Shown piece by piece: positions 34,436 through 36,256 of a stretch of DNA of 64,000 bases (its first letter is position 1; the number at the start of each line of letters is the position of its first letter). The notes below the pieces were generated by a model. It was not told the DNA's origin, did no database searches, and saw nothing but the letters and a program-made list of their open reading frames with translations. The translations under genes were made by a program, and so were the position numbers. The stretch is from NCBI GenBank assembly GCA_036504355.1, contig DASXVG010000083.1, positions 8,902 through 72,901 of the forward strand, given 5' to 3'. The DNA is from Candidatus Limnocylindrales bacterium (GTDB taxonomy: Bacteria > Chloroflexota > Limnocylindria > Limnocylindrales > CSP1-4).

Positions 34436-34574
34436 CCGCTGGGGGCGAATCGGCGCGCAACGAACCCGGGTGCGCCGACGCCATACCCTTCGAACCCGGC
34501 GCAGCCCGCGCCGGCACCAGGGTGAGGGACCAGGGCCGTCGTCGTCCGCCGACGGATCGGGCTGGATCGCGATC

Positions 34575-34793
34575 ATGCCGGCGGACGGCTCGTCCGTCGC
34601 GCGTGACATCGGCGCCCGCATCGACCATACGCAGAACCCCGACACGGTCAAGGTCTGGTCGCCCGACGGGACCCAGGTCATCCAGCGCATCGACGCCACC
34701 GCGAAGACGTACCTCGTGGACCCGGTGACGGGCGGCGCGACGGAGCTCGCGTGGGCCGAGGACATGCCCGATTGGCAGCGGCGGGCGAAGTAG
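34575..34793 (+). pseudogene. Short PD40-repeat remnant (about 1.5 blades)
   Basis: ...WIAIMPADGSSVARDIG...VKVWSPDGTQVIQRID..TYLVDPVTGGATEL. The ORF upstream of this is Arg-rich nonsense, and there is no signal peptide or SD. Confidence 0.35.
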
Positions 34794-34947
34794 CCCGCCC
34801 GGTAACGCCGGGGCGCCCGTGGCGTCTTGGGGGAGCACCGGCCTGTCGATCGTGCCGGCAGGCGAGGCTCATTGAACGTTTGATGGCTCCCTCCTGCCCA
34901 TAGGGGGCAGCCGCGGCGATGATCGCAGCGGCTCGGAGGACGAGCCG

Positions 34948-35112
34948 GTGCGAGACGTCGTCGAACGGGCGATGCGCGGTGATCGCGAGGCGTTCGGGGT
35001 GCTGGTCGGTCAGATCAGCGACCGGATGTACGCGGTCGCCTCGCGGATCCTGCGCGACACCCATCTCGCGGAAGACGCCCTGCAGGGCGCTCTGATCACC
35101 GCCTGGCGTTCC
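34948..35112 (+). pseudogene. Truncated ECF sigma factor (region 2 only)
   Basis: SD GGAGGA plus GTG. GDREAFGVLVGQISDRMYAVASRILRDTHLAEDALQGALITAWR then loses homology and runs straight into the SD of the next ORF. Regions 3/4 are absent. Confidence 0.6.
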
Positions 35113-35135
35113 GGATCAGGTAGGAGGTTCAGGAC

Positions 35136-35566
35136 ATGCGTTCCCAGCTCATCATGGCGCTCGCGACCGCTTCAGTCCTTGCGGCGGTGGCGGCACCTGC
35201 AGCAGTCGCCGCGTCGCCGGGGTTCGTTGACATCGTGCTCGACTCGAACTTCGCCACAGGCGTCGAGACGTTCACCGCAACGGGGGCGTTCTGCGCGTCG
35301 GGCACGGCCCAGTCGAGCGATCTGCGCGTCGTTGGCGGCTAAGGCGGCCTCACGTTCCACCTCGTCAAGACCCTGACCTGCGATGACGCCTCAGGCTCGT
35401 TGCTGATCGCCGTCGATGCGGCAACCTCCCGTGGCAGGACCAGGGTGGCTGGTCGGTGCAGGGTGGCACTGGTCAGTGGGCGAACGCGAGCGGCGGGGGC
35501 AACCTCGTTGGCGCGTACGTCCCGGACGGCGTGATCGACGAGTACACCGGCGTCATCGCGCGCTGA
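35136..35566 (+). pseudogene. Secreted protein gene disrupted by an in-frame TAA (35340) and a frameshift (about 35425-35430)
   Basis: SD TAGGAGG and signal peptide MRSQLIMALATASVLAAVAAPAAVAA. Sense continues after the TAA (GGLTFHLVKTLTCDDASGSLLIAVDAATS). It then continues in another frame (WQDQGGWSVQGGTGQWANASGGGNLVGAYVPDGVIDEYTGVIAR*). Confidence 0.6.
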
Positions 35567-35676
35567 TCCGCGGGCGTTACCGGGCAAGCCCGCACCATCC
35601 GTGCCGGCGAGGCGATCTCGGACCGCCTCGACGGCTTCCGCGATCTCGCGCGGCCTGAAGATCGCGCTGGCCATCT

Positions 35677-35705
35677 GGGACACTTCGCGCCTGTCGCCGT
35701 ATCTA
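35677..35705 (+). promoter_or_regulatory. Second copy of the ECF-type promoter motif: GGGACA-N17-TATCTA, 6 nt upstream of an ATG
   Basis: tCTGGGACACTTCGCGCCTGTCGCCGTATCTAtggggcATG compared with gTTGGGACACTTGCGCCTTGTGGCGCATCTAcctcgcATG at 31403. Confidence 0.35.
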
Positions 35706-35711
35706 TGGGGC

Positions 35712-35834
35712 ATGGTGAGCGAGCTCTCCTCCGCAGGCGCGGTCCCGTCCTCGGTCGTTGCGGCCGCGGTCAGCGGGGACGCGGTTGCGTTCGCCCGGAT
35801 CGTGAGCGCCCATCACGACGATATGGCGCGCGTC
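35712..35834 (+). pseudogene. N-terminal remnant of a paralogue of the 31439 ECF sigma factor
   Basis: AAVSGDAVAFARIVSAHHDDMARV parallels LAANGDEVAFARLVERHHASMAKV. Homology ends after about 41 codons. Confidence 0.55.
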
Positions 35835-36200
35835 TGGCGATTCGTGTGCTGCGCATCGATCCGGATGGCAACGTCGAGTTCCAGGCCGGCCCGAGCCAGC
35901 TCAGCGACTACTACGCTGGCCATCGTCGCGGACCCGTGCACGACGCTTGGCGCCGGCTGATCGAGCCACACCTGGACGCGGCCGGTGCGATGGCGCCGGC
36001 CGCGTCGCCGTTCGCGCGCCCCGGGCTCCTCGGGCGGCTGAGCCGTGGCACCGTGCCACCGGGTTGCCGCAGGGCGGGTCGGCGGTGGCACCTGGTCCCG
36101 CCGCCGCAATCGATCGCCCGCCGGACGGCCGGTCCGACGCCTTCATGCCATCGACCAGCCGGTGGGCGGCGGCAGAGCGGTGCGCAACCGCACGAGAACC

Positions 36201-36229
36201 TTGTTCCAGCCTCTCCGATTCGATAGCAT
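36201..36229 (+). promoter_or_regulatory. Sigma-70-like promoter candidate TTGTTC-N17-TAGCAT upstream of pyrG
   Basis: Read directly. Followed by SD CGGAGGA and ATG 36257. Confidence 0.35.
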
Positions 36230-36256
36230 TGGAAAAACCCCCGGAGGACCCGACCC

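Follow-up and report, generated by a model that had tools for sequence, protein, structure and literature searches.

The window analyzed here is a stretch of 64,000 nucleotides (contig C83, positions 8902-72901) from a Candidatus Limnocylindrales bacterium, whose metagenome-assembled genome (MAG) comprises 3.38 Mb in 152 contigs, with 71% GC, 96% completeness, and 2.9% contamination. Our subject is the zone at 34436-36256, between the stop codon of a PD40 lipoprotein gene and the start of pyrG (CTP synthase), where remnants of extracytoplasmic function (ECF) sigma factor modules are packed side by side. As the initial annotation had stated, the zone holds no intact gene: every open reading frame (ORF) is short, and the sole Pfam match is half of a Sigma70_r2 domain, while nine other ORFs on both strands of the zone had no Pfam match. 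The zone reads as follows, with the letters A to D for the genes and primed letters for their truncated remnants.

34454-34539, plus strand: what remains 5' of a deleted Bl-type ECF sigma gene, namely its leader and its now orphaned promoter (motif AACGAACCCGGGTGCGCCGACGCCATAC at 34459-34486, then a short GC hairpin, then the Shine-Dalgarno sequence GGTGAGGGA)
34540-34793, plus strand: A', the 3' remnant of a sigma-linked membrane PD40 beta-propeller protein gene (putative anti-sigma), comprising the final ~86 of its 445 codons with the original stop
34794-34857, no strand: spacer of 64 bp in which no homology was found
34858-34947, plus strand: sequence preceding the B-type sigma gene, with its promoter (TTGAACGTTTGA...CCCATAG)
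34948-35112, plus strand: B', the 5' stub of a B-type ECF sigma gene, codons 1-54 of 182, with half of region 2 and no region 4
35136-35566, plus strand: C, a full-length pseudogene for a secreted two-Cys protein of ~143 amino acids that belongs to no recognized family, with a nonsense codon (TAA, 35340-35342) and 7 bp lost at 35429/35430
35567-35674, no strand: spacer of 108 bp
35677-35705, plus strand: D-type ECF promoter before D' (GGGACAC...ATCTA), conserved in relatives G048, G014, and G011
35712-~35850, plus strand: D', a 5' stub with the first ~46 codons of a D-type ECF sigma gene (181 codons when complete); the D type is the one most similar to the window's intact sigma factor
35851-36182, no strand: E, an orphan stretch, with a hairpin at 35975-36006
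36183-36256, plus strand: conserved pyrG leader and end of the decay zone, with nucleotide identities of 87-98% that begin at 36215 in all relatives and already at 36183 in G008 and G013

The zone was compared, at the protein and DNA level, with the pre-pyrG region of 20 genomes of the same genus (denoted by G numbers), of which G018 is the closest relative examined, as judged by pyrG (98.7% amino acid identity). In public genomes, the neighbors of the window's pyrG are MAGs that carry the labels Chloroflexia, Candidatus Limnocylindria, or Limnocylindrales. Each of A to D has a full-length counterpart in the slot between the nitroreductase gene and pyrG of a sister species, which supports the view of the initial annotation that ECF modules are eroding here. 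Searches by tblastx and tblastn without adequate statistics returned only compositional noise in this 71% GC DNA and were discarded. Codon-position GC in the zone shows a coding-like periodicity on the plus strand, in separate blocks that switch frame, which is the pattern expected of gene fragments. The Rfam scan of the zone found no RNA family, and scans for sigma-70 promoters and terminators were not above background.

The first remnant was anticipated as a PD40 fragment, and it is one: by tblastn, 34530 or 34546 to 34793 aligns with residues 359-445 of PD40 proteins of 442-445 amino acids in relatives and ends at the same stop codon. The amino acid identity of A' to the G011 protein is 69-72%, and it also aligns to the A proteins of G019, G014, and G008. 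A WSPDGT-type repeat unit is visible at 34656-34679, and Pfam called no PD40 repeat in the fragment. The 5' 80% of the gene is missing, and no second copy of A was found in the own genome. What precedes A' is the start region of another gene: 34454-34539 has 78-84% nucleotide identity to the stretch that ends at the GTG start codon of the Bl-type sigma gene in G011, G014, G019, G013, and G008; an AACGAA...GCCGACGCCATACCC box is invariant in that stretch, which also has a Shine-Dalgarno sequence and a short GC hairpin. The homology breaks at ~34540, inside the former sigma start codon, and resumes at 34546 with residue 359 of A. This junction points to a single deletion, of ~1.65 kb by comparison with G011 (locus L013, 6541 to 8188), that took the Bl-type sigma gene together with 80% of its partner. 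The own genome has a single copy of the Bl-type motif (the orphan at 34459-34486). Five relatives have one or two copies each, and reversed controls have none. The motif stands before the sigma gene in G008, G014, G019, and G057, and the match in G011 lies at another locus.

The second remnant, B', was correctly recognized as an ECF region-2 fragment. Its alignment, from 34948 to 35109 or 35112, comprises residues 1-54 of a sigma factor of 182 amino acids, with identities of 91% to G018, 89% to G001, and 89% to G021, and B' lacks the 3' 70% of the gene. Its match to Sigma70_r2 covers positions 2-37 of 71 and scores 23.7 bits against a cutoff of 24, and the intact B orthologue of G018 passes the TIGR02937 model. 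The upstream region of the gene is preserved as well, since 34858-34947 has 87% nucleotide identity to the divergent intergenic region between the nitroreductase and B-type sigma genes of G018, and 78-80% to those of G001 and G021. At least eight intact paralogues of B, at 45-62% identity, are present in the own assembly.

For C, the nonsense codon and the frameshift reported in the initial annotation were both located precisely. Codon alignment to the intact single-frame genes of G013, G008, G019, and G057 places the TAA at 35340-35342 at a codon that encodes Gly in these four homologues, and a 7-bp deletion between 35429 and 35430. The gene is also open in G021; intact relatives of 164 amino acids were aligned, and tblastn picked up C in two frames. 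A programmed frameshift or readthrough was ruled out, because the homologues are plain open frames. The own promoter of C is gone, while its Shine-Dalgarno sequence is kept at 35118-35130 and abuts B'; no second copy of C exists in the own genome. A scan with the Bl-type motif found a match before C in G008. The rare motif AACGNA-N9-12-CCGACGCCATAC, which the Bl-type sigma operon has 5' of it, was also observed 5' of C in three relatives: at ~7310-7345 of L015 (G008), at ~4985-5015 of L035 (G057), and at ~3875-3905 of the reverse complement of L017 (G019). C was thus probably a regulon member of the deleted Bl-type sigma factor, and C and the Bl-type sigma operon may have formed a two-promoter mini-regulon of this factor. 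A helical-looking peptide on the minus strand at 35558-35713, which reaches into the spacer downstream of C, had no matches above chance level among 70 genomes of the genus.

The fourth remnant had been described as a sigma stub of 41 codons with its promoter. The stub and the promoter stand, and its length is revised to about 46 codons (35712-~35850), over which the identity is 78% to G048, with which it shares the promoter, and 61% to G014; the homology ends after ...DDMARVWRFVC, and the 3' 75% of the gene is missing. Pfam returned no match in D', and the D-type orthologues and the neighboring intact sigma factor pass TIGR02937. The pattern GGGACAC-N13-17-YATCTA has exactly two matches in the whole assembly, one before D' and one before the intact sigma gene, the latter aligning with the D-type promoters of relatives. 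The occurrence of the Bl-type and D-type motifs supports reading both as putative autoregulated ECF-type promoters.

The orphan stretch, which the initial annotation had counted as a fifth remnant, does not behave as one. A phmmer search of E against 1.84 billion representative proteins gave zero hits, no nucleotide homology was detected, and its codon-position GC is weak (GC2 0.67, GC3 0.80, for the second and third codon positions). Local nucleotide alignments of E to the pre-pyrG regions of six relatives were no better than those of shuffled sequences, except for a weak one to G016 (z = 4), and E had no Pfam match in any frame and no Rfam match. A lenient blastn match of E to G018 was rejected, as it was driven by the conserved pyrG leader. 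The hairpin at 35975-36006 (GACGCGGCCGGTGC gatg GCGCCGGCCGCGTC), between D' and pyrG, has a near-perfect GC stem of 14 bp and a 4-nt loop, without a T-tract. In the conserved leader that follows, 36201-36229 reads TTGTTC-N17-TAGCAT, a possible pyrG promoter by eye, with a weak -35 box and left uncalled by the consensus scan.

The setting of the zone is a slot bounded by the nitroreductase-family gene and pyrG, whose neighborhood in the window is as follows.

28686-29657, plus strand: EamA transporter gene, 5' of the slot
~29654-30475, plus strand: HAD hydrolase gene
30765-31394, minus strand: nitroreductase-family gene, left flank of the slot
31387-34857, plus strand: segment of 3.47 kb that is absent in G018, holding the intact sigma/propeller/PD40-lipoprotein module, the orphan promoter, and A'
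31405-31432, plus strand: D-type ECF promoter before the intact sigma gene (GGGACAC-N-CATCTA)
31439-31984, plus strand: intact ECF sigma gene
~31983-33344, plus strand: intact membrane propeller protein gene
up to 34435, plus strand: PD40 lipoprotein gene
36257-37975, plus strand: pyrG, right flank of the slot
from 38142, plus strand: rho

This slot is a hypervariable, flexible region, in which conserved flanks enclose differing content. Its size in the 20 relatives ranges from ~0.4 kb without a gene to >7 kb with several sigma modules, and representative contents are these.

G020, G024, and also G005 (with a truncated nitroreductase gene): slot essentially empty
G010: one sigma gene
G018, G001, G021, G068, and G063: B-type sigma gene and other genes
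G008 and G013: Bl-type sigma gene, A, C, an alpha/beta-hydrolase lipoprotein gene, and D-type sigma gene
G014, G048, and G057: three or more sigma units

In G018, homology to the window runs to 31386 and resumes at 34858, with 20 bp between (L011, 7869-7890), a clean indel at whose borders, 31387 and 34857, no long direct repeats were found. The ORFs scanned, a non-exhaustive set as regards the slots of the relatives, showed no member of an integrase or transposase family, and insertion of an insertion sequence or prophage was rejected as the cause, as no such genes were seen.

Stubs of their own are present in the slots of G011, G071, G057, and G005. The remnant cluster, called unusual in the initial annotation, is therefore unusual locally within the window, and not among the relatives. 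In G071, A is truncated, with only its N-terminus left, and B is truncated too. G011 carries an orthologue (77%) of the intact sigma gene of the window and, immediately 3' of it, just the C-terminal part of the lipoprotein gene (L013, 4425-5190), as well as a shorter D-type stub with its promoter and another breakpoint (L013, 9925-10054), ~340 bp before pyrG; decay is reciprocal between the two genomes, as the Bl-type sigma gene and A are deleted in the window and intact in G011. The nitroreductase gene is truncated in G005 (L020, 10317-10478, residues 11-64 only) and split into two frames in G010 (L024, 8749-9334) and G057 (L035, 1334-1943), which may be real decay or assembly error. The pyrG gene of G075 (L033, 7024-8684) lies in five frame-shifted pieces, which marks this assembly as error-prone and its pseudogenes as unreliable; owing to this assembly noise we relied on truncations, not frameshifts, in the relatives.

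The remnants had been taken for one or two duplicated ECF modules, and this was not supported. The intact sigma factor has ~33-34% identity to full-length B-type factors (34% to B) and 52% to the D-type, the intact propeller protein does not match A at E<=1e-3, and 30700-36300 contains no near-identical repeats linking module and remnants. The remnants trace back to at least three distinct source units, of which one combined a Bl-type sigma gene with gene C and the gene for the PD40 protein A, and the others contributed a B-type and a D-type sigma gene; a recent tandem duplication of the intact module was rejected because the identities are too low. The pieces are lineage-specific losses of older, divergent modules, not the decay of a fresh duplicate. 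A related-locus search found no relatives of the intact propeller protein, and its homologues, at only 35-45% identity, lie at other loci in 5 of 69 genomes of the genus; we infer that the remnants do not descend from the adjacent intact module, which is a rarer cassette in its own right.

The description of these genes as caught in the process of erosion is fair. The GC3 of the remnants is 0.81-0.95 (0.95 for A'), as compared to 0.92 +/- 0.065 in 50-codon windows of intact genes, and their amino acid identity to orthologues is within or above the range between intact orthologues. Normal GC3 and ortholog-level identity together indicate that the losses are young relative to species divergence.

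A', B', C, and D' each combine homology to an intact gene of relatives with a disabling lesion. We consider it very probable, from the comparison of sequences, that the zone is a young pseudogene cluster produced by deletions and point lesions in a hypervariable ECF-module slot between the nitroreductase gene and pyrG, that is, by ordinary deletional decay. One deletion of ~1.65 kb took out the Bl-type sigma gene along with the 5' 80% of the gene for its PD40 partner, fusing promoter and leader to A'. The B-type sigma gene is cut after codon 54 and joined ~10 bp 5' of the ribosome-binding site of C, a junction that accounts for the loss of the C promoter. C itself, presumably useless once the Bl-type sigma gene had been deleted, has the nonsense codon and the 7-bp deletion, and the D-type sigma gene is cut after about codon 46 with its promoter retained. 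The start codon of A' is destroyed, sigma region 4 is missing from B' and D', as is most of region 2, and neither stub has the complete regions 2 and 4 of a functional ECF (group 4) sigma-70 factor. Given the destroyed start and the missing region 4, a functional product would not be expected, and the remnants are presumably non-functional DNA on the way to deletion.

Several points weigh against this account of deletional decay. None of the relatives has the order A'-B'-C-D', and more than one ancestral arrangement and count of events could account for it. The account does not cover E and the two spacers, ~500 bp or about a quarter of the zone, and C is linked to the Bl-type sigma regulon through motif similarity only. 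Some frameshifts in the relatives are probably assembly errors, as the pyrG of G075 illustrates. Exact look-ups of the 142-aa ORF fused to B' and of the 107-aa A' ORF in public assemblies found no match, nor did a search of metagenome contigs with a 35-mer across the B'/C junction, and the source genome is a fragmented MAG.

This last point, with its 152 contigs and 2.9% contamination, feeds the idea that the zone is an assembly or binning artefact, a consensus or chimera of co-existing strains in which some or all lesions, especially the TAA, the 7-bp deletion, and the junctions of the sigma modules, are not in any cell. The slot is highly polymorphic between species and could vary within a population too. 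Against an artefact, the flanking synteny (HAD hydrolase and nitroreductase genes on one side, pyrG and rho on the other) is conserved and the flanking genes are intact, the GC content is uniform, no repeat or near-identical paralogue lies at any junction, and the missing gene parts are found on no other contig of the own assembly. Moreover, four independent lesions of different kinds fall within 1.8 kb while the neighboring genes are clean, and comparable stubs sit in the slot of independently assembled relatives. We regard an artefact as highly unlikely. Exaptation of the remnants, in which retained ECF promoters are fired by paralogous sigma factors and the stubs serve as small proteins, sigma-dependent non-coding transcripts, promoter decoys, or an additional stress-responsive promoter toward pyrG, would fit the D' promoter, whose boxes and spacing to the ATG equal those of the promoter of the intact sigma gene, the only other copy in the genome. 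G011 likewise keeps a D-type promoter with a shorter stub and a different breakpoint close to pyrG, an intact D-type sigma gene lies directly 5' of pyrG in G008 and G010, and a frameshifted copy does so in G013. Yet the species with an empty slot (G020, G024, and G005) express pyrG without such a promoter, from a conserved leader of only 40-75 bp, and a strong hairpin (35975-36006) stands between D' and pyrG. In addition, stub sequence 3' of the breakpoints is not conserved, and no truncated form is common to different species. We regard exaptation, too, as highly unlikely.

A narrower form of this idea, that the orphan ECF promoters are kept by selection rather than chance and that the D' promoter is still fired by the intact sigma factor, is also highly unlikely. 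If it were true, the D' transcript could be an RNA, non-coding or with a small ORF, that is induced by stress and runs toward pyrG, or the promoter could act as a sigma-titrating decoy. The independent promoter and stub of G011 would then fit a scenario in which the promoter of a dead sigma gene is put to new use and ties CTP synthesis to envelope stress.

The zone can be compared with three known systems. The deletional-bias model of Mira, Ochman and Moran is said to describe how bacterial pseudogenes are removed from variable, flexible genome regions. Its pseudogenes and ours are alike in showing truncations, a nonsense codon, and a small frameshifting deletion between conserved flanks, with intact orthologues in sister species and remnants that differ by species; here, in contrast, four remnants of one functional class (ECF signaling) lie within 1.8 kb and two orphaned sigma-specific promoters are intact. 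It is this packing of ECF remnants together with intact orphan promoters that makes the order "regulator lost, then target decays" readable.

In Thermoanaerobacter tengcongensis, Tt-RpoE1 is an ECF sigma factor followed by Tt-TolB, a TolB-like (PD40 propeller) anti-sigma factor, and its autoregulated promoter was shown experimentally (PMC3397946). The Bl-type unit of the relatives resembles this pair in gene order, as the gene after the sigma gene encodes a protein that spans the membrane once and has PD40/TolB-like repeats (Pfam PD40; partial match to TIGR02800), and in a conserved, AAC...CG-rich promoter-like motif 5' of the unit. It differs in that the window has lost the sigma gene and 80% of the partner gene, that Pfam and NCBIfam detect no anti-sigma domain in the Bl-type partner, and that the Bl-type motif is unlike tGTTAC-N16-CGTC. 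A pair of the Tt type would have a partner that binds and inhibits the sigma factor through its N-terminal domain; what was seen of the Bl-type unit in relatives is the gene order and the PD40 repeats.

Casas-Pastor et al. 2021 (PMC7826278), who classified ECF sigma factors, put the average at about 10 ECFs per genome. The own genome, with ~24 full-length ECF-like loci, falls in line with expanded ECF repertoires, and B, D, and the intact sigma factor are two-domain group-4 factors that pass TIGR02937; the present case differs in being a loss, not a new ECF type. Outside the window, two partial ECF sigma matches, at 57652-57882 of contig C109 and 34787-34981 of contig C118 (both minus strand), cover region 4 only in one case and residues 4-68 only in the other, and may be further stubs.

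Annotators should mark the short ORFs at 34470-36226 as remnants or pseudogenes instead of small genes, and should record the Bl-type sigma factor, its PD40 partner, and protein C as absent from the genome. The phenomenon is already known: it is ordinary gene loss in a fast-changing slot, unusually easy to read, with no new mechanism, and the cluster opens no long-standing question. Loss of a sigma factor appears to have been followed by decay of its neighboring target gene, with sigma-specific promoters outlasting the genes that they served. The zone is thus a clear, small example of ECF repertoire turnover in soil Chloroflexota of the Limnocylindria type, where modules come and go at one hot spot beside a housekeeping gene and different species retain different members.

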